This document shows positions 5,312 to 30,386 of a stretch of DNA of 64,000 nt, in pieces. The stretch covers positions 2,912,001-2,976,000 of the forward strand of contig CAWCKH010000004.1 in NCBI GenBank assembly GCA_963796055.1. The letters run 5' to 3'. The first letter of the stretch is position 1, and each line of letters begins with the position of its first letter. Made by a program: the position numbers and the translations under genes. The DNA comes from an uncultured delta proteobacterium. Its GTDB lineage: Bacteria; Myxococcota; Myxococcia; Myxococcales; Myxococcaceae. The notes under the pieces are model-generated. The model was not told where the DNA came from. It made no database searches and was given only the letters and a program-made list of their open reading frames with translations.

Positions 5312-5503
5312 ATGCAGGTCACCGGGTCCGTCTCTCCCTCATCCCCTCAGCGTGGCGGCGACGTCCTTTCCCGCCTTCTCCGGGCCTTCCGGAGCCTGGC
5401 CGTGGCCGGGCGGCCGGCGATGCGCTGGGCCGAGATGAGGCCGATCGATTTCGAGGGCGAGGACACGAGCCTCACGCAGGAGCAACTCGACGTCCTCCGC
5501 TGA
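5312..5503 (+). CDS. Small hypothetical protein, copy 1 (ends WAEMRPIDFEGEDTSLTQEQLDVLR)
   Basis: AAGGAG RBS before ATG; C-terminal motif repeated at 5698-5775. Confidence 0.6.
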   Translation: MQVTGSVSPSSPQRGGDVLSRLLRAFRSLAVAGRPAMRWAEMRPIDFEGEDTSLTQEQLDVLR

Positions 5504-5601: not shown

Positions 5602-5775
5602 ACCCTGCGCGGTCCTCGTCGTGGCGCACCCGCGCACGCGATTCTGCTGTTCCGCCTCGTCCGCCGATCGGCGCGCGAGCCAGGAAGGTTCGTCGTCTGG
5701 GCGGAGATGAAGCCCATCGACTTCGAGGGCGAGGACACGAGCCTCACCGAGACGGATCTTCGACGCCTGAAGTGA
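5602..5775 (+). CDS. Small hypothetical protein, copy 2 (ends WAEMKPIDFEGEDTSLTETDLRRLK); start uncertain or frameshifted
   Basis: Open frame from 5602 to TGA at 5773-5775; paralogous to copy 1 with mostly synonymous changes. Confidence 0.45.
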   Translation, partial: TLRGPRRGAPAHAILLFRLVRRSAREPGRFVVWAEMKPIDFEGEDTSLTETDLRRLK

Positions 5776-7271: not shown

Positions 7272-8042
7272 CTAGAGGCTGGTGGAAACCTGCCGGCGCA
7301 CCTCATCGGCGAGCGGGTGGAGGACTTCCGGCGGGGCCGGCCCGACCAGGCTGTAGCCGACTCCCTTGTCCGCCCAGGTGAAGCCCCGGACCGACCCATG
7401 CGAATGCGGCGCCATCGGCGCGTTCTCGCCGACCGCCATCGGGCGGCTGAGGAGGACCAGGCGCACGCCGTGATCGTCGTCGTACATGAAGAGCACGGCC
7501 GGGCCATGAGACGTCGCCACCACCCGTCCCCCCATGAAGCGATATCCCGACGCGGAGAGGTCCGGGACCGTGACGTGACGTCCTACCCGTTCTGAAGCCC
7601 ACTGAACCAGCGCCGGTTGATCATTGGCGCGAAGCTCGACGGGCCGGATGCGATCGGGTGCATAGACCTCGTAGCTGTCGGTCGCTTCGCGGGCGAGCGC
7701 GACGATCCCTCTGCGTCCCGGCTCCGTCGTCGCGTGGAGGGACCAGCCACCTGCGCCTCCGATGCACACCAGCACAGCGGCGGCAGCGGCCATCCGCCAC
7801 ACGGGCGAGCGACGCCGTGCCTCGATCATCCGGGGGAGATAGAGCTCGGGAGGCAGGGGTTCCTCGGCGATTGGCCTCAGGGCCGCTCGCAGCGCCTCTC
7901 GCTGCGCCCGGTACCCCTCGATGCGCTTGGCCTCCTCCGGGTGCGCCAGGAGATAGTCGGACACCGCAACTCGCCGGGCAGGATCGAGCGCGTCGTCGAC
8001 GAAGGCGTGGAGTTCATCTTCGGTGATGGGACGAGAGCTCAT
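7272..8042 (-). CDS. Transmembrane anti-sigma factor (PrtR/RsiW-like)
   Basis: PITEDELHAFVD N-terminus, TM AAAAAVLVCIGGAGGW, periplasmic PDLSASGYRFMGGRV...LFMYDD pattern. Confidence 0.85.
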   Translation of the reverse strand: MSSRPITEDELHAFVDDALDPARRVAVSDYLLAHPEEAKRIEGYRAQREALRAALRPIAEEPLPPELYLPRMIEARRRSPVWRMAAAAAVLVCIGGAGGWSLHATTEPGRRGIVALAREATDSYEVYAPDRIRPVELRANDQPALVQWASERVGRHVTVPDLSASGYRFMGGRVVATSHGPAVLFMYDDDHGVRLVLLSRPMAVGENAPMAPHSHGSVRGFTWADKGVGYSLVGPAPPEVLHPLADEVRRQVSTSL

Positions 8043-8187
8043 TGGATTCGGCGAGCTGCCGATCGGCGGAGGCAGCGGACGTTCCAGGGTGATGGGAGGC
8101 CTCGCCTGCCGATGCAACCAGGGCGGCTCCCAGCAGGAGTGCCAGCACCATGGGGCGCCCGATTGCTGTCACTGGATGAGCACGCAT
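8014..8187 (-). CDS. Possible small secreted protein (57 aa)
   Basis: GAAGGAC-ATG; MRAHPVTAIGRPMVLALLLGAALVASA signal-like N-terminus; overlaps the anti-sigma start. Confidence 0.3.
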   Translation of the reverse strand: MRAHPVTAIGRPMVLALLLGAALVASAGEASHHPGTSAASADRQLAESNELSSHHRR

Positions 8188-8537
8188 GTCCTTCGGACCT
8201 CCGGGGATGAGCTCGCTTCTCGGTGGGTAGACCGGGTCGGAGGTCCGCTATTCCATCGGGCCGTGGAGCCGCCACGCTCTGGGCAAAGGGGCGTGTTTCC
8301 GAGGCACACGACGGCGCTCCGATGTTCGGTTCAGGACCATGGACGGGTCACCGGACGAGACCAGGGCCCCCTCGGAGTCGTGGGCACGGCCGCGAACGCC
8401 CAGGCAGGTGCGAAAGCTCGCGCCGGTGATGGGCCCGGCGTGGTGCCTGCTCTCCCGGCCCGTCCGGGGGCTCGCCGTGGCAGCAGAGCTCCAGGCGGAA
8501 TCCCCCGGATGCGATCTTCCGTAGCGGGAATGGTCCG

Positions 8538-8553
8538 ACTGGCACGTGCCAGT
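8538..8553. promoter_or_regulatory. Perfect 16-bp palindrome, possible operator
   Basis: ACTGGCACGTGCCAGT in the divergent intergenic region about 100 bp upstream of 8650. Confidence 0.4.
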
Positions 8554-8649
8554 TCACCTATTGGAGCTGCTCTCACGGAATAAACTTGAGCGGAACTCCA
8601 TCTACCGTGGGCGCGGGCCAATGACGGCTCGTCCAAGTGGAGAACGAAG

Positions 8650-9153: not shown

Positions 9154-9489
9154 TCAGATGCAGGTCTGGTTGCAGATCGCGGGATGGCTTCCGTTCAATA
9201 GGTCGTCGCAGGACTCGTTCCTGTAGCCGTCGACGCACTGGCTGGCATTGCCCGAGCTGAAGCTCCGTCCTCCGGGGCAGGTGGTCAGGGCGAGCGTGCA
9301 GCTCTGGTTCGACACGAGCGTCTTGCAGTCCGACAAGCTTCCATAGATGTGCTGCGATTCCGTCGGAAAACACTGGAAGGACTTGTCACACAGGGCGTTG
9401 GTGGCGTCCTTGCACGCAGAGACGGGGTCACCACCACCGCAGCCGGATAGAGCGGCAACCATCAACAGCAGGAGGAATGCTCGGAACAT
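9154..9489 (-). CDS. Cysteine-rich lipoprotein
   Basis: MFRAFLLLLMVAALSGC lipobox followed by 10 further Cys; 3' part of ORF 9154..10524. Confidence 0.8.
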   Translation of the reverse strand: MFRAFLLLLMVAALSGCGGGDPVSACKDATNALCDKSFQCFPTESQHIYGSLSDCKTLVSNQSCTLALTTCPGGRSFSSGNASQCVDGYRNESCDDLLNGSHPAICNQTCI

Positions 9490-9548: not shown

Positions 9549-10277
9549 TCATCCGAACTTGTAGGCAAGACCAAGCAGGGCTTGAAACGTAAAATCGGTT
9601 CCATACTTGGTAAAGATCATCGGCCCGGTGCGAAGGTTGAAGGTCACCGCCAGGGACCTGTCCAGAAAATACTCGACCCCTGCGCCGAAGAGGATGGGAA
9701 CAGTCAGGGTGCCGTAGTCGCCAAAGGTCACGAACACAGGGAGATCCAGATTGAGGGCAACATTGAAATTTCCCGCCACCGCTACGCCGAAGACCAGACC
9801 GGCGGGAAATGCAATGCCGAACTGCGTCCCTCCGACACTGCTGCAGACGTTGGCGGCGGAATAGACGCTGACATCGACGGTGTGCGTACCCAAGATCACG
9901 GGCATACAGAACGACTGACCCAAGAAATACGTGAGCATCCCCGGCGCGAACCAGAGGCCGAGGTTGTACCGCGGGGTCTTCAGCAGCGTGCCCTTGAGGT
10001 AGGCCAGCAGCTTGATGCCCTTGTAGGAGGCCCTGACATCGCCCTCGTAGTTGTAGTTGAAGGTGAAGACCCCGCCGAAATCGAAGTTGGGACTGCCGCC
10101 GTGAAGCACGCTGATTGAGAGTCCCGGCCAGGCCGCCTGCACGTGAACGGACGTTGCTCCTCCGCCGACTGTCTCCCCGGTCACCACCGACCACTCCTGG
10201 CCGCCAGCTGCCACTGCGTGACAGGGCGCGAACGCCAGCACGCCCAGGACCGCGCACCGCTGAAGAACTTTCCTCAC
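9549..10277 (-). CDS. Putative outer-membrane beta-barrel protein
   Basis: GGGAGG then GTG; signal peptide; amphipathic beta strands; C-terminal LLGLAYKFG. Confidence 0.75.
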   Translation of the reverse strand: MRKVLQRCAVLGVLAFAPCHAVAAGGQEWSVVTGETVGGGATSVHVQAAWPGLSISVLHGGSPNFDFGGVFTFNYNYEGDVRASYKGIKLLAYLKGTLLKTPRYNLGLWFAPGMLTYFLGQSFCMPVILGTHTVDVSVYSAANVCSSVGGTQFGIAFPAGLVFGVAVAGNFNVALNLDLPVFVTFGDYGTLTVPILFGAGVEYFLDRSLAVTFNLRTGPMIFTKYGTDFTFQALLGLAYKFG

Positions 10278-10438
10278 TCGAGACCTCCCGAAGCCCACTG
10301 AAGCAGCGCCCAAGGAGGCGCCGATGGTGATACGCACGAAGCCGGCGCGGTTTCTCACCAGGCGCTTCCGGAGAGGCCGGCAGGGAAGTGCGTTGTCTTC
10401 GCCTGGCCCGCCGCGTACGTTGAGCACCGCTTGATTCC

Positions 10439-10993
10439 ATGTCTTCAGCACTGGACAGGTTCTCCTCCGAGCTGGAAGCGGCGGTGGGAAGGTTCGCGGC
10501 GCTGGTCCGTCGGGTCGGGCTCAAGCATCGGCTGTCCGAGGCGGACCTAGAGGATGTGCTTCAGGAGGTCCGGATTCGCCTCTGGCGCGCGCGTTCTCGC
10601 CCGCAAAGTGAGAGAACCGAGCAGGTCTCTGCGTCCTACGTGTATCGGGTAGCGGTGTCGGCGGCGGTGGATCTCCTGCGCCGTCGGCGTGCCCGTGGCG
10701 CGGAGCAAACTGTGGCTTTGGACGAAACGGAGGAGCTCGTCGCCGACCACTCGGATCCGGCCCGATCGGTCGAGCAGGCCGAGCTGTCAGCGCAGCTGGC
10801 CCGGGCGATCGAGGCGATCACGCCCTCGCGCCGTCCGGTGGTTCGGATGTACCTCGCCGGCTACTCCGGTGAGGAGGTCGCCAAGGTGATGGGGTGGTCC
10901 GAGCCGAAGACCCGCAACCTGCTCTACCGCGGGCTCGCGGATCTGCGTGAGCGACTGACAGAAATGGGCATCGGATGGGAGACCAGACCGTGA
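10439..10993 (+). CDS. ECF-family RNA polymerase sigma factor
   Basis: Region 2 DLEDVLQEVRIRLW...YVYRVAVSAAVDLLR; region 4 GYSGEEVAKVMGWSEPKTRNLLYRG. Confidence 0.92.
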   Translation: MSSALDRFSSELEAAVGRFAALVRRVGLKHRLSEADLEDVLQEVRIRLWRARSRPQSERTEQVSASYVYRVAVSAAVDLLRRRRARGAEQTVALDETEELVADHSDPARSVEQAELSAQLARAIEAITPSRRPVVRMYLAGYSGEEVAKVMGWSEPKTRNLLYRGLADLRERLTEMGIGWETRP

Positions 10994-11637
10994 CCGACGA
11001 GGCACTGCGAGAGGCGTACCAGCGGGCGCTCGAAGCGCGCCGGGTCAGCAGCCGGGAGCCCTGCGTGGCCCCGGAGGCGATGGTGTCGCTGCTGAGGGGC
11101 GAGGGCGCCGAGGAGCAGCGGCTGGAGGCGCTCGACCACGTGATGGGCTGCGGTGCGTGCCGCTCCGAGTTCGAGCTGCTGCGCTCGATGGAGCAGGCCG
11201 GCGCCGGGACAGCGGAGCGGGCGAGGCCCGCAGTCCTGCAGATTCCTCGGCGGATTGCGGTCCCCCTCGCTCTGGCCGCCTCACTCATCCTGCTGGTCAC
11301 GGTCGGGCAACGGCTCAGGTCGCCGGAGGGCACCGATGTCGAACGCGGAAGCATGGACGGGGTCACGCTCCTCGGGCCGCCGGCCGAGATCGCGGCGGGG
11401 ACTTCTCCGACGTTCACCTGGAAGCCCGTGCCCGGCGCACAGAGCTACGAGCTCGAGGTGCTCGACGAGAAGGGCGCCGTCGTCTGGGGCGCGAAGACGA
11501 CCGAGACCTCAGTGACCATGTCCGGTCCTGTCTTGATGGTGCCCGGCAAGAGCTACCGCTGGTGGGTGCGAACCACGACCGCCTCGGGCAATCAGCGGGC
11601 GTCCGCGGTCCGGAGCTTGCGCATCCGGATGAAATAG
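10990..11637 (+). CDS. Putative zinc-binding (ZAS/zf-HC2) membrane anti-sigma factor with extracytoplasmic beta-sandwich domain
   Basis: GTGA coupling to the sigma stop; HVMGCGAC (HxxxCxxC); TM IAVPLALAASLILLVTVG; FTWKPVPGAQSYELEV...GKSYRWWV Ig/FN3-like C-terminus. Confidence 0.8.
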   Translation: MTDEALREAYQRALEARRVSSREPCVAPEAMVSLLRGEGAEEQRLEALDHVMGCGACRSEFELLRSMEQAGAGTAERARPAVLQIPRRIAVPLALAASLILLVTVGQRLRSPEGTDVERGSMDGVTLLGPPAEIAAGTSPTFTWKPVPGAQSYELEVLDEKGAVVWGAKTTETSVTMSGPVLMVPGKSYRWWVRTTTASGNQRASAVRSLRIRMK

Positions 11638-14576
11638 GCCGCCGCACCCGCTGCGGCCACCACCGGAAGCGCCAGGAGCAAGCCCACCCACCCGGAAGCC
11701 ACCAGCGGCGTCCGCAGCGGGACGCGGACGAGAGGGTCGCCCACTGCCGTGAACACCGCCCATTCATTCGGTGCAGCGCCCCGCCCAAGCGCATCGAGCT
11801 TCGCCGCGCGCAGCGCATCCGCGACCGGCAGATCTCGTGCGAGTGCATCGTAGAACGATTTCACGAATGCGACCGTGGCCTGGTCGCGGATCCGCCAGCT
11901 GGTCGCGACCACGGAGCGCGCGCCGGCCTGCAAGAGCGGGGCGGTGAGGCCCATCACCCCCTCTCCTTCCACCACTACGCCCCGCGCGGTGCGGCACGCC
12001 GAAAGCACCACCAGGTCCGCGTCGAGACGGAGCGCGGCCAGCTCTCCGGGACTGACGAAGCCGCTCTCGCCCTCGCCGGGCGCGAGCGCAAGGGCAGTGC
12101 GCGCAGCGGTGCCCTCGTCCACCAGGGCATGCGTGGCGAAGTGCAGAATCCGGAATCGAGCGAGGTCGGCATGCTTCAGATAGGCCGCGCTTGCCGCCTC
12201 GCGGAGCCTGACCTCGGCCTCCGGCGCGTAGCCTGCGACGAGCTGGATCTCGCGAGCACTGGCCTGAAGACGCGGTAGTCCACCGCTGACCTTGAATGCG
12301 GATCGGAAGACCTCTGCGTCGTCGTTCGCCGACGGGACCTCGCCACCCTCGCCAGCGCGGGGGAAGGTGGGATCCCCGAAAGCGAGAAGCCGCATCGGAC
12401 GGGCAGAGGTGCCAGCCTCGCGAGATCTTCGCCAGAGCGCCGACACCACTGCCGCAGAGGGCGCGACGCTCACCGAATAATGCTGAACGACGTGCCGGCC
12501 ATCGGCCAGGCGGAGGGCGTCCCAGGGTAGGCGATGCAACGGGCCGTCCGGGACGATCACCAGTCGGGTGACGTTGGGGCCAAGGCCCGCGAGCGCCGGC
12601 TGGAGCAAGGCCTCTCCGAGGGCACCTGCAAGCTCGCCGGCGTCGGCCCCGCCTTCCAGGAGCGCGACGAAGCGCGCCACCTGGGTCGACAACTCCTTCG
12701 GCACCTCCAGGGAGTGGACCTGCAAGCCGGAGCGCTGGACCACGAACAGCGTCGCCGGACCATCCTGGTTGCCGACGATGTACTCGAGCAAGGCAGTCCT
12801 CTCGTCGGGGATCGAGGTGGCGATGGCGTCCGCGGTGACCGGGCCGGAACCCCGCGCTTGCAGCGACTTCGCGTCGGCCTTGGCGCCGATACGCAGCGCC
12901 TCGGCCTGGAGCAGCGCTTCCATCAGCTCGCGAGCGCGGCGGCGTTCCGCAAGCTCGAAGGCGGAGGCGGCCCGACCACCCGCCGCGAGCAATCCCAGCA
13001 AGCGCGCCACGCTGGCGTCCTGATCGCTCTTGCCAACCGTCTTCAGCTCCGCTGGGGAGGTCTGAAAGGCGAGTAGCCGCAGCTCGCGGTCGCCGAGGCC
13101 GGCTCTCCAGCGATCCAGGTCATCCCAGGCGGACATCGCCTCCTGCTCGGCGCCACCGACCTCCCCGCGGAGGGCATGAATTTCGGCGAGCCTGAGGCGC
13201 GTCTCGTAGCGCGCGACGGGCTGGGATGCGTCAGCAGTGGCCAGGTATGACTTCAGGGAGGATTCGGCTTCGGCCAGATCGCCGCGAAAAAGCGCGAGAA
13301 GCCCGAAATCGAGCTTGAGCTGGTCGGTCCACCGCTGCATCCGAAGCCGGTGGGCGAGCTGCTCGGCATCACCGAGCGCCCGGGCGGCGGCTGCCCAGTC
13401 GGCCTCGCGCATGTCGATGGCGGCGAGCATGCGGTGAAGCTCGAAGACGTCGGTCGCCTCGCGGGTGGAGCGGTAGAACTCCAGGACCTCGAGCACCTGG
13501 CGCCTCGCCTCTTCCGGCTTTCCGGCGGCCAGCGAGAGGAAGGCCAGGTACCTGCGGGGGATGGTTGTGCTGGACGGATCGCCCTGGGCCTCGTACATGG
13601 CCACGGAGCGCTCCAGGTGTTCTCGGGCAGTCGCCAGGTCGTTGACGTGCATCGCGACGTCGGCAAGCCCGTTGTGGGCTCCGGCGATGGCGAATAGGTT
13701 GTGCGACCTCTCGGCCTCTGCGAGCCCCACGCGCAGTGCTTCCAACGCCTCTCCGAAATCGCCATACGACAGATGAGCTCCCGCGCGGTCGGTGATGGTG
13801 ACCGCGAGCCAGCTGACGTCGCGCGCTCTGCGGAATCTCTCCTCTGCCTGCCGGAAGAAGGCGACCGCCGACGGGTACTCCGAGCGGTAGAAGTGCACCT
13901 TCGCCGCAGAGCGCAGCGCCTGCGCCTCGGCCCTCAAGTCGCCCGCCCGGCGCGCGATGGCAATGCTCGCCTCCGCGTCCGCCATTGCTTCCGGAGCGCC
14001 GGAAACACCACGGAGGCCCGCACGATGACTCAACAGATGCGAATGCAAATCGAGCGCGCCCTCCGGGATCAATTGCAGCGCCCGATCCAGGAGTGCCAGG
14101 CCAGCCGGCACGCCGCTCACTCGCCCGGCGACGAAGGACAGAGCGATCAGCGCCTCTGCCTCCGCGGCTCTGTCGCGCGCCGCGTGCGCTGCCTTCCGGA
14201 CAGCTTCGAACTCCGCTTCGGCGCCGTTGCTGAACCCGCGCTCCTCGAGTGCCCAGGCCTGGCCAAGACGGGCATAGATCGCAAAGCCGTCCGCCGGAGA
14301 GGAGGTGGGATCACTCAGGCGGCGATAGAGGGCCTCCGCGTTCGGATAGTCGTAGGTGAGTCGCGAGAGCGTGGCGAGACCGAGAAAGGCTCCCCGGTTC
14401 GTGGAGTCGCGCGCGAGCCTCTCCTGCCAGAGCCCTCGCAGTCCCGCCCCGCCGTCGTTCTCGATGGCTCGCGTCGCTTCGCGCACGACGGCTCGGGGGT
14501 CATCCAGCGCACCCGCCGGGGTTGAGGTCACCGCCAGCGTCTGCGCAATGGCCAGAGTGCAGAGCAGCGGCAGCAT
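11592..14576 (-). CDS. TPR-repeat CHAT-domain (caspase/HetF-like) cysteine protease, exported and C-terminally membrane anchored
   Basis: Signal-like N-terminus; TPR helices; IVPDGPLHRLPWDAL, ILHFATHA (catalytic His), LVVLSACRT (catalytic Cys), AGARSVVATSW; C-terminal TM followed by a basic tail. Confidence 0.93.
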   Translation of the reverse strand: MLPLLCTLAIAQTLAVTSTPAGALDDPRAVVREATRAIENDGGAGLRGLWQERLARDSTNRGAFLGLATLSRLTYDYPNAEALYRRLSDPTSSPADGFAIYARLGQAWALEERGFSNGAEAEFEAVRKAAHAARDRAAEAEALIALSFVAGRVSGVPAGLALLDRALQLIPEGALDLHSHLLSHRAGLRGVSGAPEAMADAEASIAIARRAGDLRAEAQALRSAAKVHFYRSEYPSAVAFFRQAEERFRRARDVSWLAVTITDRAGAHLSYGDFGEALEALRVGLAEAERSHNLFAIAGAHNGLADVAMHVNDLATAREHLERSVAMYEAQGDPSSTTIPRRYLAFLSLAAGKPEEARRQVLEVLEFYRSTREATDVFELHRMLAAIDMREADWAAAARALGDAEQLAHRLRMQRWTDQLKLDFGLLALFRGDLAEAESSLKSYLATADASQPVARYETRLRLAEIHALRGEVGGAEQEAMSAWDDLDRWRAGLGDRELRLLAFQTSPAELKTVGKSDQDASVARLLGLLAAGGRAASAFELAERRRARELMEALLQAEALRIGAKADAKSLQARGSGPVTADAIATSIPDERTALLEYIVGNQDGPATLFVVQRSGLQVHSLEVPKELSTQVARFVALLEGGADAGELAGALGEALLQPALAGLGPNVTRLVIVPDGPLHRLPWDALRLADGRHVVQHYSVSVAPSAAVVSALWRRSREAGTSARPMRLLAFGDPTFPRAGEGGEVPSANDDAEVFRSAFKVSGGLPRLQASAREIQLVAGYAPEAEVRLREAASAAYLKHADLARFRILHFATHALVDEGTAARTALALAPGEGESGFVSPGELAALRLDADLVVLSACRTARGVVVEGEGVMGLTAPLLQAGARSVVATSWRIRDQATVAFVKSFYDALARDLPVADALRAAKLDALGRGAAPNEWAVFTAVGDPLVRVPLRTPLVASGWVGLLLALPVVAAAGAAAYFIRMRKLRTADAR

Positions 14577-21385: not shown

Positions 21386-24300
21386 TCACCGGATGCGGAA
21401 CACCGCGGTGTGCGGACGGCCGTCGTCCACAAGGGGAATCGCGCTGCCCTCGATGCTGCCTCCATCGAGCGTGATGCCCGGCGCGCCGCCGCCCCGCTCG
21501 ACGCGAAGTGAATAAAGGCTTCCCCCGAAGCGGTAGTCGATGGCGTATTCACGCCACGCGGCTGGAACACAGGGGAGCAGCTGGAGCGAGTCTCCCCGCC
21601 GGGTGAATCCCAGGATGGCCTCGAGGCCCACGCGGTACATCCAGCTCGCCGAGCCGGTGTACCAGGTCCACCCCCCGCGCCCGCGCTGGCCCTCCGCGGT
21701 GTACACGTCCGCCGCCACCACGTAGGGCTCCACCTTGTACGTCGCTACTTCCGCCGCGGTCCGTGCGTGGTTCAGCGGGTTGAGCATCTGGAAGAGCTCC
21801 AGCGCCCCCTCCCCGTCGCCGGCCATCGCCCGGGCGAGCACCGCCCACACCGCGGCGTGGGTGTACTGCGCGCCGTTCTCGCGCACCCCGGGGAGGTAAC
21901 CCTTGATGTAGCCCGGATCCTGCGGCCCGTGGTCGAAGGGCGGCGCGAGCAGGCGCACCAGCCGAGCCTCTCTATCCACCAGGTGCTCCTCCAGGGAGCG
22001 CATCGCCTGCAGCCGCCGCTCGGGTCGTCCGCCGCCGCCGATGACGCTCCAGCTCTGGGCGATGGAATCGATGCGGCACTCCTCGCTGGTGCTGGACCCG
22101 AGCGGCACACCGGCGTCGTCATATGCCCGCCGGTACCAGGCGCCGTCCCAGCCGTGCTCCTCGACCGCGGCGAGGTAGCCCTCCGCGTGCTCCCGGAGCT
22201 CGGAGGCGACCGTGCCGTCGCCTCGCCCCGCGGCCTGCTCCGCGAACGACCGGAGCGTCGCCGCCAGGAACCAGGCCAGCCAGACGCTCTCTCCCCGGCC
22301 CTCCGCGCCCACCCGGTTCATCCCGTCGTTCCAGTCACCCCCGCCGATCAGCGGGATCCCGTGAACGCCCCGGGTGCTGGCCTTCCTGAGCGCGCGGAGA
22401 CAGTGCTCGTAGAGGCTCCCCACCTCGGCGGAGGTCTGTGGCAGGTCGTACGCCTCCTGCTCGCCCGGCTGGAGCGTGCGCATGGTCAGGAACGGCACCG
22501 GCTCGTCGAGCACCCCGCGGTCGCCGGTGACGTTCACGTAGTGGTCCACCGCGAAGGGCAGCCAGGCGAGATCGTCGGAGAACCGCGTGCGCACGCCCCG
22601 ACCGCTCTCCGGATGCCACCAGTGCTGCACGTCACCCTCCACGAACTGCCTGCTGGCAGCACGGAGGAGGTGGGCCCGTGCGACGTCCGGGGCGGCGTGG
22701 AGGAAGGCCATCGAATCCTGGAGCTGATCGCGAAAGCCGTAGGCCCCGCTGCTCTGGTACAGGGCCGAGCGGCCCCACATCCGGCAAGAAAGCGCCTGGT
22801 ACAGGAGCCAGCGGTTCAGCAGGGCGTCGAAGGCAGGCTCAGGCGTGTGCACCTGGACGATCGAAAGCCGCTGCTCCCAGCCGTCCACCGTCTGGTGGAT
22901 CGCCGCCGCCGCCCGCGCCGGATCGCGGAGCCCATCCACCGTCCCCCGCGCCCGCTGCGCCGACGGCGCCGCCCCGAGGAGAACCACCACCTCCCGGCTC
23001 TCTCCGGGCCCGATGGTCAGCGCGCAGTGGAGCGCCGCGCACGGGTCGAGCGCTGCACCCGTGCGACCGCTGAGGCGCCCGATGCCCGCCGGAGCCTCGA
23101 TGCTCCCATGGCGGCCGAGGAACTCGCGCCGATCGGCCGTGTGGCCCTGCACCTCGGGGGCGAGCGCACAGAACGCCACCCAGCCGGCGAACTGGGGGTC
23201 GAAGGTGTTCCGCGCGAAGAGCGTCCCCCGGGCGACGTCGAATTCGGTCCGGATCTGATGCTGGGTGTGCTCGCGCTGGCTCCCCAGCGTCCACTCGACG
23301 TAGCTGGTCACCCCGATGCGGCGCGTCCGGGGGCTGTGGTTGGTCAGGCGCAGTCGCGAGATCCGCGTCGCCGAGCCGTCGGCAAGGCCCACCGTCAGGA
23401 GGCTCTCCACGTCGGAGTGCCGGTGCTCGAAGGTGGACGCGCCGGCGTCGTGGCGGATGAGGTAGGCCGAGGCGTGACGGATGGGCGCGGGAGTCGGGGT
23501 CCACAGCTCGCCCGTCTCCTCGTCCCGGAGGTAGAGGACGTCACTCACCGGGTCCGTGACCGGGTCGTTGTGCCAGGGCGTCAACCGGTAGAAGAAGCTG
23601 CTACCGGCCCAGGTGAAGCCGGCTCCCCGTTCCGAGACGAGGAAACCTCCTTCCGGACTGGCCACCACGTTTGCCCACGGCGCCGGGGGGAGGGCCGAGC
23701 CACGAAGGCGGATCCGGTATCTCCCCTCGGCGTCCAGGCTCCCGAGCCCGTTGTCCAGAAGCAGGGGCGTGGGGGCCGGCGCATCCTCGCCCGCCGCCGC
23801 CAGGTCCACGGGCCCGGCTCGCGCGGGCGCCCGTCCGACGCTCGCCACCGGCGTTGGGACGCGCAGCCGTTCCACCAGACCGGCGAAGGTGCGCTGCAGG
23901 GGCCGGCGCGGAGGAAGCCGGAGCTCCTTCACCTCCTCGGTGGCATCGGTCAGCGATTCCAGGATCGGCCCGAGGCGACGGCCGTCGCAGGGCAGGTGCA
24001 CCCGCGCAGTGGCGCGGAGCATGCGTAGCTCGGCCGGGCCGAGGAGATCGCGGCGGCGGACGAAGACCCCGCCCGGACGGTCGACCATTCCCGCCTCGCT
24101 GGAGGAGAGAACGGTCGCCGTCACCTGGTCGCCGAGGGCCTCCAGATAGGAGGAGGCCCGGGTGTTCAGGATGACCAGGTCCACCATCATCCCGCGCCGG
24201 CGCCAGTACTGGTGCGCGGAGAGGAGCTGCCGCAGGGTGGGCAGCCCCTCCGTCGAGTCGATCGTGGCCAAGAGAATCGGCCAGTCCCCCGAGAGCCCGA

Positions 24301-27300
24301 CGGCCCAGAGCATGGGCTGGGAACCCTGGTTGGCGAGGAGCTCCGCCTCCGGCGCGCGCAGCTGGGGATCGGAGAAGAAGAGCGCGCCCGCGAGCTGCTG
24401 GAAGACGCCTGCGTCCACCGACGAGGTGTTCAGCTCGCGCAGCTCGATCTGCGCCGCCGTCCAGGCGAGATCCAGGGCACGGTGCGCCGAGCGGGGATCG
24501 CGATAGCGGTCGGCCAGCTCGAAGGCTCGCTCGGCGCTGGTGGTGACCAAGGTGGTGAAGGCCGCCGAGGCCGAGCGTCCGGGCTCCACCCGGAGGCGGC
24601 AGCGGAGCGCGAAGATGGGGTCGATCACCGCCCCCGTGCTCCCGCTCAGCTCCGCACCATGGTCGAGCGCCGCCGGAGCGCGGGTGGACCGGCCCCGCCC
24701 GAGGAACCGGCTCCGATCGGTCTCGCAGGTGATCTCACCCACGCGTTCCTCCCCGGTCGCCAGGACGTGGGTGCACCACACCCGCTGCTCGGAGGGAGCA
24801 CGGGGCCGCCGCGTTCCGGTGACCGCCGAGCACCAGGCATGCCACGCGGTCTCGACGAAGAGGCTCCCGAAGGCGGGGTGGGCGCGGTCGGCGCCGGGCG
24901 GAGCCAGGACCAGCTCGCCGTAGCTGGTGAGCTCGATCTCGCAGGGAGCGCCGCCGTTGTTGGTGACGGTCACCCGCCGCACCTCCGCCGCATCGTCGGG
25001 GACGGTGGTGATCTCGGTCCGGGTCTCGATCGGGCCGTCGGTCCGGTGGAAGACGGCCCGGTCGGTGGCCAGGGAGACGTGGTAGGTGTCGGCCCGCGCG
25101 CAGACGGGCTGGTGGGCGGTGGACCAGATGCGCCCACGCGTCACGTCCTTCACGTAGCAGTGCTGCCCCGTGGAATCGGCGGTCCCATCGGCGCGCCAGC
25201 GGGTGACGGCGAGGTCCTCGTACCGGCTGTAACCCGAGCCGCCGTTGGTGAGCATCACCGTGTACGGGAGCCGCCCCAGCAGCGCCACCCGGGGCTGCGG
25301 GGTGAACGGGGTGTCGAGCTCTCGCACCGCCGGCGCCTCCAGCTCGGGGTTGGGGAGCGAGGCCTCGGGGCGCGCGGTCTGCGGCTCCTGGAGCATGAGC
25401 CGGCGCGGGATGCGCTCGTAGAGCAGGAGCTCCGCAGCGCGCACCAGCGGATCGGCGTGGAAGCGGCGCTGCCAGATCAGGCCGCTCAGGGCGTTGGTGA
25501 GCGCACCGAGGCCCATGCCGAGGTGGTGGGCCATGAAGGTCTCCACCACCGAGCAGGCCTTCCCCGGTTCCGGCCGGGTGTAGTCCAGGGCGTCCCGGAG
25601 GCCGTATGGCCCGAGCGCGCCCCTGCGTTCCAGCGAACGCAAGTTCGCCAGCGCGCGTTTCGGATCGACCATCGCCGCCAGCGCCGAGGCGTAAGGGGCG
25701 ATGACCAGATCGCTGTCCAGGCCCCGCTTGAGCGCCAGGTCGGGCACCCCGAAGGCCCGGTACTGGTACGTCCCGAAGCGATCGCGGACGTTGTAGGCGC
25801 TCTCGCTGATCCCCCAGGGCACCGCGTGGCCCGCTGCGTAGGTCATCTGACGCCGGACCGCTCCCCGGTAGGTCTGGTCGAGGAGCGTTTCGGGGAACGA
25901 GCGCATCAAGAGAAGCGGCATCAGGTACTCAAACATCGTCCCGCTCCAGGACATCAGGGCGGTCTCTCCGGCGACACGCGACAGCTCGCGTCCGAGATGG
26001 AACCAGTGGTCGACCGGGACGTCGTCCTTGGCGATGGCCACGTAGCTGGCCAGCCGCGCCTCGGAGGCCAGGAGGTCGTAGTACGACGGGTCCAGGGTGT
26101 GACTGGTCAGCTGGTATCCGATGGAGAAGAGCGCGCGCTGCCGGTCGTAGAGGAAGCTGAAGTCCATCGCGCTCGCGTGGCGGCTGGCGGTGGCAGCCAG
26201 CGCCTCGAGGCGAGCGATCAGCTCCGCGGCCCGTGGCGTGCTGGACGAGAGCTCGCGAAGCGTCGGGAAGATGCGGGTCGCTTCGCCCAGCCGGCCGACG
26301 CCCGCCCGCGTCTCGAGCCCTTCCACCCGGCGGCGCTGCTCGCCGACAAGCCGGCGCGTCCAGGCCGTCCACTCCCTCGCCTCACCCAGCGGCACGCGCC
26401 GCTCGGCCACCCCTGCAATCGCTTGCTCCAGCTCGTCCAGCCGTGCGAGGACGACATCGAGCCCGGCCGCGACATGACTCACCCGCTCCGCCGCCGCCAG
26501 GGCCGAGCGAGCCTGGCGGAGCTTCGGCTCGATCCTGGCGCTGGCGGTCGTTCCAACCATGCCCAGGGCGGTCTCGGCGGCCCGCCACGCGCGGCGATCG
26601 AAGACCGGCTCGTCGGGGATGGCCAGACAAGCCTGGCGCACGGCGATGAGCAGACCGGCCAGGTTGCCGCTGTCGACCGTCGAGACGTACGCCGGGGTGA
26701 GCTCCCGGAGATCGCGGAGATCGTACCAGTTGTAGAAGTGGCCCCGAAACCGGGGCAGGCGCTCGAGCGTGGCGAAGACCCGCTCGAGCTGGGAGATCAT
26801 CTCCTCGAGCGGAAGAAAGCCCAGGTCATGGGCGCTGGTGACCGCCAGGAGCTGCAGGCCGATGTTGGTGGGCGAGGTGCGCATCGCCACCACCGGCCAC
26901 GGGCCTTCCTGGACGTTGTCGGGCGCCAGCCAGTGCGTCTCGGCGGTGACGAAGCGCTCGAAGAACCTCCAGTGCAGGAGTGCGTACCGGAGCGCATCGG
27001 CCCTCAGCGCGGGGGCGAGCCTGCGCTCGCGACGCCTCGGAGACTGGTCGAGCCAGTGGGCGACCTGGGGCGCGCAGATCCACGCCCCGGTGAGCACGCT
27101 GCACGCCAGGATCCAGGCCCAGCGCTGTGGGCCAGTCTCTCCCACCTGCCCGAAGGGGTGACGGAGGAGCAAGGCGAGGAAGAGCCCTGCCGAGAGGAGC
27201 ACCGAGGGCCACATGGCCCGCCAGACGGCGCGCGCCGAGCCCGAGCGAAAGCGCTCGGACTGAAACGCGGTTTGCCATTCGAGCAGGTGCCGCCGGGAGA

Positions 27301-30046
27301 TCCCCATCCGCCACAGCGTCCGGATGATGGCGTCGGCGGAGATCCACGCCTGGTGGGGAAGAAAGACCAGCGCCAGGCCCAGCTGCCGCGCGCTGGTCAC
27401 CGCGTCACGGCCGATGGCCGCGTAGTAGGCCCGCCAGGAGCGGTCGAGCGGCGGGCGGAGCGCGCCGAGGAGGAGGGTGACGATCCACGGCGCAGCGACG
27501 GCCAGGATCCACAGCGCCGTCCAGCGCAGGGGAGAGCCTGGGACCACCGTCCAGCCCGCGACCAGGAACGCCAGCTGGGCGAGCTCGACCACGCTGCGGC
27601 GCAGGTTGTCGATGACCTTCCACAGCGAGATTGCCGGGAGCGGGTTGGGCGACGGGCCGCCGGGACCGGGGATGGTGCGCCGGGTCCAGGGAAGGAGCTG
27701 CCAGTCGCCGCGGATCCACCGGTGCTTGCGCCGGGTCCAGGTGAGGTAGCTCGACGGATAGTCGTCGTACACCTGGATGTCGGTCGCCAGCCCGGCGCGC
27801 GCGAAGCAGCCCTCGATCAGATCGTGCGAGAGGAGGGTGTTGGGCGGGAATCGACCGTGGATCGCGCGCTCGAAGGCGTCGACGTCGTAGATGCCCTTCC
27901 CGGTGAAGCTGCCCTCGCCGTAGAGGTCCTGGTACATGTCCGAGACCGCGGTGGTGTAGGGATCCACGCCCGGGTGGCCGGAGTAGATGGCGGCGAAGCG
28001 GGTGCGGTTGGCGCTGGGCAGCGAGACCCCGACGCGCGGCTGGAGGATGCCGTAGCCACGCGCAACTCGCGCGCCGGCCGCATCGAAGCCGGGTCGGTTG
28101 AGGGGGTGGGCCATGGCCCCCACCAGGAGCGGGGCGGTCTCCGGGGGGAGGACGGTGTCGGCGTCGAGGGTGATGACATACCGGACATCCCGCAGCACCG
28201 CGAGGTCCCCCAGCACGACCGAGAACGCGCCCTCCGCGCCTCCCCGCACGAGGTGATTGAAGTCGGCGAGCTTTCCCCGCTTCCGTTCCCAGCCCATCCA
28301 CACCCCTTGCTGGGGGTTGAAGCGTCGGGGGCGGTGGAGAAGGTAGAAGGCGTTCTCGCCCGGGCCGTAGCGCGCGTTGAGGGCTTTCACTCCGACGACT
28401 GCGGCCTGCACGATGGCGGCGTCGTCCTCCCCTACCTCCGTGGGCGCGTCGGTGAAGTCCCCCAGCACGACGAAGTGGAGGTTCGCTCCCCGGTTGGCGA
28501 GGAACTGGACCTCGAGGTTCTCCAGGGCGTGCTCCACCGACTCGACGCTCGCCAGGAGCGTGGGGATCACCACCGCGGTGCGTGACTCGGCGGGGACGCC
28601 GCTCTTGCGAAAGTCGAGCTTGGGCAGGCGCTGCGGCCGGAGGAAGCTGGTGAGCAGTTGCTGGATGACGTTGAGCGCGACCTCGTTGCCCGGGAGCAGG
28701 GCGATGAGGACGAGCAGGGGCCAGGCGGGGCGGGCCTGCGCTCCGGCCATCCACAGGACTGCCATCAGGGCTGCGACGGTGCCGAGCATCGCGCTTCCGG
28801 CCAGCGCCAGGTCCGGGTGGCGGCGGGCGGCCCGGAGCAAGCGCTCGCCCAGCGGAGGCCGGTAACCGACGGCCTCCTCGAGCGTCGTCCGGCCGGCTCC
28901 GAGCAGGAAGAAGCCCACGTGGGCACTGGCAGGCGGCCTTTCTTGCGGCAGGCGCTGGGCGAGTTCCACCGCGGCCCTCGCGACCTGCTCCTCGGGCCGT
29001 CCGGTCCTGCGAGCGAGACGCTCGACCACGTGTCGGTACTGGTCGCGCGTCTCGAACGTCATCCGGGAATAGATCTCCGCCGGGTCCTTGCGGAGCGCTG
29101 CCTCGAGCACGCTCTGCGCTTCGACGAACTCGGGCCAGTCCATCCCGCCCAGGGTGCGGAGGCTGGTGATGCTGTTGGCCATCATCACCTGGGTGAGGGC
29201 GAGCCTTTGGGTGGCGCGGGCGGTGGACTCCTCGGCGCCGTGACCCTCGTCGTCGAGCCAGCGGTCGAGCCAGGTCATCGCGGTGGCGCTGCCGCCGAGC
29301 TGCCGGAGCTGGGCGCGCAGCCGGGAGACGAGTTCGGCGGTCAGGGCAGGGTGGTCGCCGATGAAGCCCTCGAACGCGGCGACCAGCTCCACCGGCCCCG
29401 CGGCGTCGGCAGCGTGGAGGCGGCTTGCCCAGTCGTCGGCCAGCGCGAGCTGCTCGAGGCGCTGGACGGTGCGCAGGGTCATGCGCCGCACGTTCTCCAC
29501 CAGCCCGAGCCGGAACATCGCCGGCAGCGCCCACAGCTCGCCGATCGCGAGCGGCGTCACTTCCTGAAACGCGGTGGTGAAGGCGCCGATGTTCTCCGCG
29601 TCGAGCCGGCCCTCGGAGTGGGAGATGAGGCCGATCGCCAGGTCGTACACCCTGGGGTAGCCGGCGAGCGGGCCGTCCGACAGGTCGGGCAGCTCCCCGT
29701 AGTACCCGCGCGGAAGATTCTGGCGGACGTCGGCGATGTGATCCCGGACGACGTAGAAGTTGTCGAGCAGCCATTCCCCTGCCGGACCGATGTCGAGCGC
29801 CGACGACTGGGCGGCGATGCGGGCGTGCGCGTCCTCGAGGATGGAGAGCGTGCCGTCCAGCCGGCTCAGCAGCGGGCCGATGCGCCCGATGCGGCGGCGA
29901 GGCCGGAGGTGCTGGTGACGGGCGACGGAGCGGGCGTGGTCGGCGAGCCCCTCGGCCCCGAGCAGCTCGCCCCGGATCGGGCCGGAGAGAAGGTCAGACC
30001 GCCCGCGATGGCGCGAGAACCCGCCGAGCAGTGTCCCCCAGGCCAT
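21386..30046 (-). CDS. ndvB: Cyclic beta-1,2-glucan synthase (GT84 plus C-terminal GH94 phosphorylase domain)
   Basis: About 2890 aa; EWLLDNFY, WMGWERKRGKL, YVITLDADT, LLSHDLIEG, HRWIRGDWQL, YYDLLASEAR, SWSGTMFEY, YQSSGAYGFRDQLQD, GDWNDG, GWTWYTGSA (Cgs/NdvB/ChvB family). Confidence 0.95.
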   Translation of the reverse strand: MAWGTLLGGFSRHRGRSDLLSGPIRGELLGAEGLADHARSVARHQHLRPRRRIGRIGPLLSRLDGTLSILEDAHARIAAQSSALDIGPAGEWLLDNFYVVRDHIADVRQNLPRGYYGELPDLSDGPLAGYPRVYDLAIGLISHSEGRLDAENIGAFTTAFQEVTPLAIGELWALPAMFRLGLVENVRRMTLRTVQRLEQLALADDWASRLHAADAAGPVELVAAFEGFIGDHPALTAELVSRLRAQLRQLGGSATAMTWLDRWLDDEGHGAEESTARATQRLALTQVMMANSITSLRTLGGMDWPEFVEAQSVLEAALRKDPAEIYSRMTFETRDQYRHVVERLARRTGRPEEQVARAAVELAQRLPQERPPASAHVGFFLLGAGRTTLEEAVGYRPPLGERLLRAARRHPDLALAGSAMLGTVAALMAVLWMAGAQARPAWPLLVLIALLPGNEVALNVIQQLLTSFLRPQRLPKLDFRKSGVPAESRTAVVIPTLLASVESVEHALENLEVQFLANRGANLHFVVLGDFTDAPTEVGEDDAAIVQAAVVGVKALNARYGPGENAFYLLHRPRRFNPQQGVWMGWERKRGKLADFNHLVRGGAEGAFSVVLGDLAVLRDVRYVITLDADTVLPPETAPLLVGAMAHPLNRPGFDAAGARVARGYGILQPRVGVSLPSANRTRFAAIYSGHPGVDPYTTAVSDMYQDLYGEGSFTGKGIYDVDAFERAIHGRFPPNTLLSHDLIEGCFARAGLATDIQVYDDYPSSYLTWTRRKHRWIRGDWQLLPWTRRTIPGPGGPSPNPLPAISLWKVIDNLRRSVVELAQLAFLVAGWTVVPGSPLRWTALWILAVAAPWIVTLLLGALRPPLDRSWRAYYAAIGRDAVTSARQLGLALVFLPHQAWISADAIIRTLWRMGISRRHLLEWQTAFQSERFRSGSARAVWRAMWPSVLLSAGLFLALLLRHPFGQVGETGPQRWAWILACSVLTGAWICAPQVAHWLDQSPRRRERRLAPALRADALRYALLHWRFFERFVTAETHWLAPDNVQEGPWPVVAMRTSPTNIGLQLLAVTSAHDLGFLPLEEMISQLERVFATLERLPRFRGHFYNWYDLRDLRELTPAYVSTVDSGNLAGLLIAVRQACLAIPDEPVFDRRAWRAAETALGMVGTTASARIEPKLRQARSALAAAERVSHVAAGLDVVLARLDELEQAIAGVAERRVPLGEAREWTAWTRRLVGEQRRRVEGLETRAGVGRLGEATRIFPTLRELSSSTPRAAELIARLEALAATASRHASAMDFSFLYDRQRALFSIGYQLTSHTLDPSYYDLLASEARLASYVAIAKDDVPVDHWFHLGRELSRVAGETALMSWSGTMFEYLMPLLLMRSFPETLLDQTYRGAVRRQMTYAAGHAVPWGISESAYNVRDRFGTYQYRAFGVPDLALKRGLDSDLVIAPYASALAAMVDPKRALANLRSLERRGALGPYGLRDALDYTRPEPGKACSVVETFMAHHLGMGLGALTNALSGLIWQRRFHADPLVRAAELLLYERIPRRLMLQEPQTARPEASLPNPELEAPAVRELDTPFTPQPRVALLGRLPYTVMLTNGGSGYSRYEDLAVTRWRADGTADSTGQHCYVKDVTRGRIWSTAHQPVCARADTYHVSLATDRAVFHRTDGPIETRTEITTVPDDAAEVRRVTVTNNGGAPCEIELTSYGELVLAPPGADRAHPAFGSLFVETAWHAWCSAVTGTRRPRAPSEQRVWCTHVLATGEERVGEITCETDRSRFLGRGRSTRAPAALDHGAELSGSTGAVIDPIFALRCRLRVEPGRSASAAFTTLVTTSAERAFELADRYRDPRSAHRALDLAWTAAQIELRELNTSSVDAGVFQQLAGALFFSDPQLRAPEAELLANQGSQPMLWAVGLSGDWPILLATIDSTEGLPTLRQLLSAHQYWRRRGMMVDLVILNTRASSYLEALGDQVTATVLSSSEAGMVDRPGGVFVRRRDLLGPAELRMLRATARVHLPCDGRRLGPILESLTDATEEVKELRLPPRRPLQRTFAGLVERLRVPTPVASVGRAPARAGPVDLAAAGEDAPAPTPLLLDNGLGSLDAEGRYRIRLRGSALPPAPWANVVASPEGGFLVSERGAGFTWAGSSFFYRLTPWHNDPVTDPVSDVLYLRDEETGELWTPTPAPIRHASAYLIRHDAGASTFEHRHSDVESLLTVGLADGSATRISRLRLTNHSPRTRRIGVTSYVEWTLGSQREHTQHQIRTEFDVARGTLFARNTFDPQFAGWVAFCALAPEVQGHTADRREFLGRHGSIEAPAGIGRLSGRTGAALDPCAALHCALTIGPGESREVVVLLGAAPSAQRARGTVDGLRDPARAAAAIHQTVDGWEQRLSIVQVHTPEPAFDALLNRWLLYQALSCRMWGRSALYQSSGAYGFRDQLQDSMAFLHAAPDVARAHLLRAASRQFVEGDVQHWWHPESGRGVRTRFSDDLAWLPFAVDHYVNVTGDRGVLDEPVPFLTMRTLQPGEQEAYDLPQTSAEVGSLYEHCLRALRKASTRGVHGIPLIGGGDWNDGMNRVGAEGRGESVWLAWFLAATLRSFAEQAAGRGDGTVASELREHAEGYLAAVEEHGWDGAWYRRAYDDAGVPLGSSTSEECRIDSIAQSWSVIGGGGRPERRLQAMRSLEEHLVDREARLVRLLAPPFDHGPQDPGYIKGYLPGVRENGAQYTHAAVWAVLARAMAGDGEGALELFQMLNPLNHARTAAEVATYKVEPYVVAADVYTAEGQRGRGGWTWYTGSASWMYRVGLEAILGFTRRGDSLQLLPCVPAAWREYAIDYRFGGSLYSLRVERGGGAPGITLDGGSIEGSAIPLVDDGRPHTAVFRIR

Positions 30047-30386
30047 GCGACGGCTCGGCCTCAGCACTCGCCCGTGACGGGCAATGCGAGGGCGATGTTG
30101 CGAGGCGCGGCCATCAGGGGGGGACTGTGGGGGGTCGAGGCTCCAGTCTCAAGCCGCATTCTCCCGACAATCCCCCATCTGTTGCCTCGCGGCGACATGG
30201 GACCAAGGGCCAACGTCGCGCACGGACTCGACCCTTCCGAGTCGTCGATCTCCGATCTTGCGGCGCGGACGCCCCGGGTCCTTCGCTCGCCGGTCTCCGC
30301 GAGGAATGATCCAGCGAGCATGTCTCCGAGCAGCACCCTGCCCATGGTGCTACACCTTCCATGGTCCTGGCTGGCTGAGGCGTCTC

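Follow-up and report, generated by a model that had tools for sequence, protein, structure and literature searches.

A split sigma factor, anti-sigma factor and TPR-CHAT locus in a Myxococcaceae genome, with a candidate membrane-proximal cleavage site

The three genes and their products

In a 64,000-nucleotide stretch of the genome of an uncultured Myxococcaceae bacterium (GenBank assembly GCA_963796055.1, contig CAWCKH010000004.1, positions 2,912,001 to 2,976,000; the whole stretch is called the window below) we analysed a trio of genes for a sigma factor of the extracytoplasmic function (ECF) type, a zinc-domain anti-sigma factor and a TPR-CHAT protein (Table 1). The original prediction had proposed that the CHAT domain acts outside the cytoplasm as site-1 protease of the anti-sigma factor. 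Its description of the genes was borne out: all three open reading frames (ORFs) are present, the sigma gene is coupled to the anti-sigma gene by a GTGA (10990-10993) that holds both the sigma stop codon and a GTG start, and the CHAT gene converges on the anti-sigma gene with a tail-to-tail overlap of 46 bp. An alternative anti-sigma start, ATG at 10975, is used in many homologue calls and would give 220 amino acids (aa).

The only cysteine and histidine residues of the anti-sigma factor are C25, H50, C54 and C57. The HxxxCxxC motif that had been pointed out is therefore present and, as a description of the zinc site, incomplete, since the full spacing is C-x24-H-x3-C-x2-C. By these residues the site is of the CHCC type, as in DdvA, an anti-sigma factor of Myxococcus xanthus to which we return below. 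A hydrophobic peak at residues 89-107 marks the predicted transmembrane helix, and in the AlphaFold model residues 3-77 are helical, a further helix spans 95-108, and residues 127-213 form a beta sandwich that resembles FN3 domains. The linker at 107-121 is predicted to be disordered (predicted local distance difference test, pLDDT, <50). Because basic residues stand before the transmembrane helix, the FN3 domain is predicted to lie outside, in agreement with the single helix and external beta domain suggested previously.

In the CHAT protein, Pfam domain PF12770 matches residues 648-947 (E 1e-63; 215.8 bits against a cut-off of 24), together with TPR matches. H816 and C861 are invariant in 111/111 aligned CHAT homologues, which confirms the intact dyad of the original prediction; H816 was assigned as the dyad histidine by its likeness to ATHG/H862 of DdvA. 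D898 is also invariant among the homologues. We take it to match the S1 aspartate of separase, and it may be the S1 acid.

The signal-like N-terminus and the C-terminal transmembrane segment with basic tail were likewise recovered by hydropathy. A hydrophobic N-terminal stretch is found in 111 of 120 homologues, a set that includes partial proteins, and a C-terminal transmembrane segment with basic tail in 105 of 120, some of the misses being partial proteins; in the protein studied here this segment is predicted at 958-976 and is followed by RMRKLR. From hydropathy and this conservation we infer that the protein is exported, so that the extracytoplasmic placement is supported as a predicted topology: a periplasmic domain anchored in the membrane by its C-terminus. 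The anchoring would place the protease domain, which ends at about residue 955, directly beside the membrane. The C-terminus itself (11592-11720) has the order VxLxxP, transmembrane segment, basic tail, and gave no NCBIfam match; presumably it is comparable to a C-terminal sorting signal.

Searching the PDB with the CHAT sequence gave nothing at E 0.001, and a search with the CHAT alignment gave TPR matches only; the protease was therefore compared by fold. In the predicted model (mean pLDDT 86) the separase-like protease domain spans about residues 533-955. The top Foldseek match of the protease was DdvA, and VIA placed Csx29 and separase above DdvA (Z 27-28 versus 21). Among isolated domains, the protease domain fitted best to Chaetomium separase (Z 27.0, root mean square deviation 3.1, 316 residues).

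Table 1. Features of the locus in window coordinates
Feature	Position	Strand	Basis
ECF sigma factor, 184 aa	10439..10993	+	Pfam Sigma70_r2/r4_2 and TIGR02937 over cut-off
Anti-sigma factor, 215 aa: CHCC zinc domain, transmembrane helix, disordered linker, FN3-type domain	10990..11637	+	
Arg119-Gly120 codons, predicted cleavage site	11344..11349	+	Conservation, disordered linker
TPR-CHAT protein, 994 aa: signal-like N-terminus, TPR solenoid, protease domain, C-terminal transmembrane segment	11592..14576	-	
GTGAGA-N16-TGCGTA, predicted sigma target promoter, 54 nt before barrel gene	10331..10358	-	
GTGAGA-N16-TGCGTC inside sigma gene, predicted internal anti-sigma promoter	10608..10635	+	
Outer-membrane beta-barrel protein (predicted), 242 aa, probable output gene	9549..10277	-	Outer-membrane barrels as neighbours in the atlas
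Cys-rich lipoprotein-like protein, 111 aa, 59 nt behind barrel gene	9154..9489	-	Lipobox by eye

Conservation of the trio and of a linker arginine

The neighbourhood was compared in metagenome loci, for which we used the best 80 of 220. At least 300 nt behind the anti-sigma gene are available in 61 of them: 55 have a convergent CHAT gene, one has the CHAT gene upstream and five have none (L108, L110, L112, L114 and L120, sigma/anti-sigma pairs with no adjoining CHAT gene in the available flanks). The remaining 19 are too short to judge, and a CHAT gene is visible in six of these. The sigma gene lies upstream of the anti-sigma gene in 72 of the 80 loci, most misses being contig ends.

Furthermore, 301 genomes of the phylum were searched with an anti-sigma profile, and only matches running from the zinc motif to the FN3 domain were followed; a tally of 175/301 genomes was rejected, its matches passing mostly through FN3 alone. 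From this search 16 loci were retrieved, 14 of them with a full-length anti-sigma factor. In 12 of the 14, sigma and CHAT genes lie within 2 kb, convergent or divergent (one CHAT gene is split), and the other two end at a contig edge. Of the 43 sigma-like ORFs in the genome under study, one with a zinc anti-sigma gene stands no more than about 0.8 kb from each of the five CHAT ORFs, an adjacency that exceeds chance. The gene-neighbourhood check suggested earlier thus found the trio to be co-conserved, with a CHAT gene in 56/61 metagenome loci and such a pair beside each CHAT gene of the genome. Distance correlations of 0.85-0.91 between sigma, anti-sigma and CHAT proteins (34 trios) reflect co-inheritance only and were not used as evidence of interaction; the CHAT Cys motif is kept in 34/34 of these trios.

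The five CHAT loci of the genome comprise the trio studied here, a paralogous trio, two trios with another type of CHAT protein and one DdvA-like fusion. The paralogous sigma/anti-sigma/TPR-CHAT trio (L055:8009-11920; G000:C4:2020008-2023919) has a divergent order and a VERG linker, and its relatives L045 and L046 have two tandem CHAT genes. Further sets of sigma, zinc anti-sigma and TPR-CHAT genes are found at L056:5613-11239 and L057:6918-11538; their CHAT proteins lack a C-terminal transmembrane segment, and their anti-sigma factors have a coiled-coil-like stalk and TTRG before the beta domain. The fused DdvS/DdvA-like pair (L054:7527-11032; G000:C4:773526-777031) matches DdvA at E 4e-41, and by eye no CBASS (cyclic oligonucleotide-based antiphage signalling system) or CRISPR genes were recognised around it. 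In addition, an orphan anti-sigma factor of the same type (L058:8073-8792; G000:C4:1054072-1054791) carries VVRG and an apparent frameshift in its FN3 part, with neither a sigma nor a CHAT gene nearby.

Among named relatives, those nearest to the locus are metagenome-assembled genomes of Myxococcaceae. Named protein homologues at about 50% identity belong to Gemmatimonadales/Gemmatimonadaceae, and the atlas neighbours of the anti-sigma factor are mostly Gemmatimonadota. A close version was found in only 2/301 genomes of the phylum, and this hints at transfer. No relative was found in viral contigs, and a search of longer proteins for a fused form gave three FN3-only matches and no fusion, which by the tool's own note is weak evidence.

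Within the anti-sigma family, Arg119 is present in 93/93 proteins and is one of six invariant columns at a mean column identity of 37%. Glycine follows in 83/93 and aspartate stands at -3 in 71/93, while the flanking linker columns are variable; the zinc ligands, conserved in 86-92 of the 93, are less conserved than this arginine. The residue lies about 12 residues outside the transmembrane helix, within the disordered stretch. R-G or R-S was found in the same column of 16/16 divergent FN3-type anti-sigma factors, a count that leaves out two of another type with TTRG further along. From 27 loci we recovered 17 fused DdvA-like proteins; 16 of them share an arginine in one linker column, mostly as R-S-G, and the exception has RG seven residues later. 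This column aligns within segment V129-P140 of DdvA, inside which DdvA carries R137-S138-G139. As a rough control with small numbers, at most one of five CHAT-less transmembrane zinc anti-sigma factors of the genome shows RG or RS in the 58 residues after the helix. Because Arg119 is invariant, lies in a disordered linker near the membrane and forms an Arg-small motif that matches DdvA-like linkers, we predict it to be the cut site. A possible co-change of the Asp after the catalytic Cys with loss of the linker arginine (L165) was dropped, as DdvA keeps that Asp.

Three of the 93 anti-sigma factors resemble DUF928 weakly (best E 0.001), and a literature search on this likeness found no paper. 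We take DUF928 to be a cyanobacterial CHAT neighbour; it may be a free-standing Arg-linker/FN3 module.

Promoter-like motif and likely output genes

The motif GTGAGA-N16-YGCGT, with an ECF-like spacing, occurs upstream of the sigma gene on the opposite strand and again within it. The upstream copy is conserved down to about 47% sigma identity with different neighbours, and in other loci the genes behind it encode different exported proteins, among them, presumably, OmpA-like proteins or peptidases. The barrel and lipoprotein cluster was found in 15/48 loci compared, all of the closest clade, with L001 and L038 representing one place; the two genes are likely co-transcribed.

In the internal copy, GTGAG is kept in 49/52 distinct sigma segments. 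Its wobble base is T in 50/52, versus 91/968 for the Ser/Gly codons in the rest of these genes; the encoded residue alternates between Ser and Gly while the DNA is kept through rare codons. With a position weight matrix (PWM) built from 25 non-coding training sites, the two local sites are the best and second-best matches of 5.5 Mb (scores 29.0 and 23.0); the rank of the site at 10331 is partly circular, and the site at 10608 is outside the training set. A genome-wide regulon was rejected: the exact motif occurs six times compared with 5-15 times in shuffled sequences, and PWM sites above 13.5 number 31 compared with 47-60; only the two local sites stand out. No motif site was found before the CHAT gene. 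Two RNA runs, with 5% of words shared, yielded only short pieces of related strains and nothing on expression.

The paralogous clade, whose sigma factor is identical at 48/136 positions, has GTGAGGG at the same sigma codon and outside the genes. The outside copy at L055 precedes a GC-rich hairpin-like stretch and another gene, which is presumably NifU-like. In our reading, the motif pair would define a regulon that is small and local and that feeds back negatively on the anti-sigma factor. In the RseA system, a sigma-dependent promoter inside rpoE drives rseA.

Further features of the window were noted. A second anti-sigma-like ORF with a transmembrane segment and a periplasmic domain (7272-8600, minus strand) lies 1-2 kb from the lipoprotein gene; it has no Pfam match at E 0.1, and the DNA upstream of it may be a broken sigma gene. 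A 51-nt direct repeat (5425-5475 and 5697-5747) has 92% identity at a distance of 272 nt, and a similar short ORF is found in three related loci. The minus strand at 21386-30067 carries an ORF of 2893 aa, which we assume to be similar to the cyclic beta-1,2-glucan synthase NdvB.

Comparison with known systems and proposed mechanism

The original prediction knew of no characterised periplasmic module of this kind and took Csx29/Csx30 as its comparator. Here it was wrong: DdvA combines a CHCC zinc domain, a transmembrane helix and a periplasmic TPR-CHAT region, binds the sigma factor DdvS and has been solved by cryo-EM (PMC11506125; PDB 8rot, 8rw5, 8rlz). DdvA/DdvS is the right comparator and a fused precedent for the proposed mechanism. 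Its authors term DdvA the sole characterised TPR-CHAT anti-sigma factor; RseP degrades it once TPR-CHAT is removed, and self-cleavage in the linker, of which V129-P140 is nearest to the dyad in the structure, is put forward as a proposal only (PMC11506125).

Like DdvA/DdvS, the trio couples an ECF sigma factor to a single-pass CHCC anti-sigma factor with a flexible linker after the helix, has a TPR-CHAT region with a His/Cys dyad, here predicted to be periplasmic, and has a promoter motif ending in CGT; DdvS reads GTAA-n16-CGT (PMC6061681). Unlike in DdvA, a separate gene on the opposite strand encodes the protease, which has a predicted signal and a C-terminal anchor of its own, and the anti-sigma factor ends in an FN3 domain. 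From residue 533 onward the protease domain can be aligned with separase, and it probably has helices that DdvA lacks. The predicted outputs are surface proteins instead of CBASS/CRISPR, control of which holds for only a subset of DdvA-like pairs, and the sigma gene itself contains a predicted target promoter. Homologues close to the trio bear the names Gemmatimonadales/Gemmatimonadaceae and Haliangiales, while reports of the fused form are from Myxococcota and one Comamonas (PMC11506125). Since the defining fusion is absent, the trio is not a member of the DdvA family. Most likely it works as proposed for DdvA/DdvS, in a two-protein version. No description of the split periplasmic form was found in the literature searched, whose coverage leaves out most subscription papers. 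New relative to the DdvA precedent are the split two-protein form, the candidate cut site at Arg119 and the local promoter motif with its internal copy.

The independence from CRISPR that had been proposed agrees with our searches, which found no Cas1 in the 98.5% complete genome and no array in window 1-30000. Together with PADLOC on seven proteins they revealed no defence genes; PADLOC gave no Csx30 or Cas match and one weak match to the CHAT region, and no search was aimed at Cas7-11 itself. In the type III-E craspase, as predicted for the trio, a TPR-CHAT protease (Csx29) cuts a separate protein (Csx30) that resembles an anti-sigma factor and is bound to an ECF-like sigma factor (CASP-sigma; PMC10028731), and Csx29 matches the protease studied here structurally at Z 28.3. 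Unlike the trio, craspase is cytoplasmic and activated by Cas7-11 and target RNA, and Csx30 is unrelated to the anti-sigma factor here (PMC10028731). The predicted two-step logic, an outside site-1 cut followed by RseP, is that of RseA (DegS, RseP) and RsiW (PMC10028731, PMC11506125), whereas the site-1 enzyme here would be a dedicated clan CD cysteine protease beside each pair. Actinobacterial ECF54 (PMC7826278) and the EACC2-caspase/ECF/DUF1822 loci (PMC8195603) also have an ECF factor with a CHAT or caspase-TPR neighbour and no CRISPR; in the accessible parts of these papers ECF54 is described without an anti-sigma factor, unlike the trio, and for neither group is a transmembrane zinc anti-sigma factor with an exported protease described. 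Separase (PDB 5fby, 5fc2) shares the TPR-like solenoid and clan CD protease domain, but is eukaryotic and cytoplasmic, with 16% identity, and the shared fold does not fix specificity.

The best reading of the CHAT protein is that of a site-1 protease. We consider it probable, if well short of certain, that the predicted periplasmic, membrane-anchored enzyme cuts the neighbouring anti-sigma factor after Arg119, followed by RseP, sigma release and surface-protein output. Before activation, the CHCC zinc domain would keep the sigma factor membrane-bound, with the FN3 domain as a shield for the membrane helix. The protease would be switched on by an envelope signal that acts through its TPR solenoid, and its cut at Arg119, about 12 residues beyond the membrane, would take off the FN3 cap. 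RseP, which is present in the genome (profile match over cut-off), would then cut the helix and free the sigma factor to read GTGAGA-N16-YGCGT promoters, one of which would drive the divergent barrel and lipoprotein genes. The internal promoter would resupply anti-sigma factor without sigma factor and so end the response. An Arg site is in line with separases, which cleave after Arg (PMC11506125).

Several observations weigh against this reading. DdvA dyad mutants behave as the wild type, and with phage Mx4 no autoproteolysis was observed (PMC11506125). DdvA has Met-Gly in the linker column that is Arg in its fused relatives, and the invariance of the Arg could reflect a role in docking or in structure. 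Craspases cleave after Met or Leu (PMC11506125), so CHAT specificities vary and family membership does not settle a preference for Arg. The loci compared are related and partly redundant, so the co-conservation counts overstate independence; the five CHAT-less loci represent about two organisms on mostly short contigs, and the anti-sigma factors read there (L110, L112) retain Arg-Gly. The N-terminal signal of the CHAT protein is short and lacks a basic n-region, which is atypical for a signal peptide. As to the feedback step, conserved Ala/Thr-Ser codons overlap with the -10 half of the internal site. In 8/9 further sigma genes tested, most of them from other clades, the internal site was not found.

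An unlikely alternative, yet one to be taken seriously, is a non-cutting role, in which the TPR-CHAT protein would attach to the ectodomain of the anti-sigma factor and serve as a shield or co-sensor, presumably RseB-like; Arg-Gly would then be a docking site or pseudo-substrate, and another protease would cut first. Co-conservation and an invariant Arg suit binding as well as cutting, and the DdvA site is in a resting, incomplete state, and the DdvA dyad mutants still repress (PMC11506125). However, a pure scaffold would have no need of a dyad kept in every aligned homologue or of a Cys motif kept in all 34 trios. We regard it as distinctly unlikely that the protease acts on a different substrate, such as an incoming peptide or protein or the barrel and lipoprotein outputs, with FN3 sensing the product and no direct cleavage of the anti-sigma factor. 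Exported proteins do lie behind the motif in the loci read, and the TPR solenoid gave middling structural matches to peptide-binding solenoids; yet the outputs vary by locus while the trio is constant, and the Arg-small motif is shared with the fusions, whose matching linker faces the active site.

It is very unlikely that the sigma/anti-sigma pair is a self-contained switch, worked by redox changes at the zinc site or by a generic site-1 protease, with the CHAT gene hitch-hiking on an acquired block. Orphan pairs, convergent genes in place of a single operon and the scarcity of close versions in the phylum would fit this, whereas the linkage outlasts changes in gene order, several anti-sigma types and fusion, and each CHAT gene of the genome adjoins such a pair. 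Hardly credible, finally, is a cytoplasmic, tail-anchored CHAT protein acting on the zinc domain or the sigma factor as Csx29 acts on Csx30. The weak N-terminal signal and the rank of Csx29 among the best VIA scores point that way, but the conserved N-terminal hydrophobic stretch and the basic tail behind the C-terminal segment suggest a tail-in, domain-out orientation, and the invariant Arg lies on the far side of the anti-sigma membrane helix.

The DdvA paper leaves open whether the periplasmic CHAT domain truly is the site-1 protease. In the split system enzyme and substrate are separate, and cleavage is therefore testable in trans, with the predicted promoter as a ready reporter and the CHAT-less sigma/anti-sigma pairs as a natural test for a partner acting in trans. 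The shared Arg-small motif also singles out R137 in DdvA. Tentatively, and with doubt in about equal measure, we suggest a widespread, undescribed class of trans-envelope signalling systems in which a separase-like protease of the periplasm, dedicated to each ECF sigma factor, would cut the anti-sigma factor after a conserved Arg just beyond the membrane. This Arg rule would extend to fused DdvA-type proteins, with R137 as the predicted residue in DdvA, and the off-switch of the clade would be a self-recognised promoter within the sigma coding sequence. If this is true, Myxococcota and Gemmatimonadota would commonly use caspase/separase-like proteolysis for signalling at the envelope, separately from phage defence.

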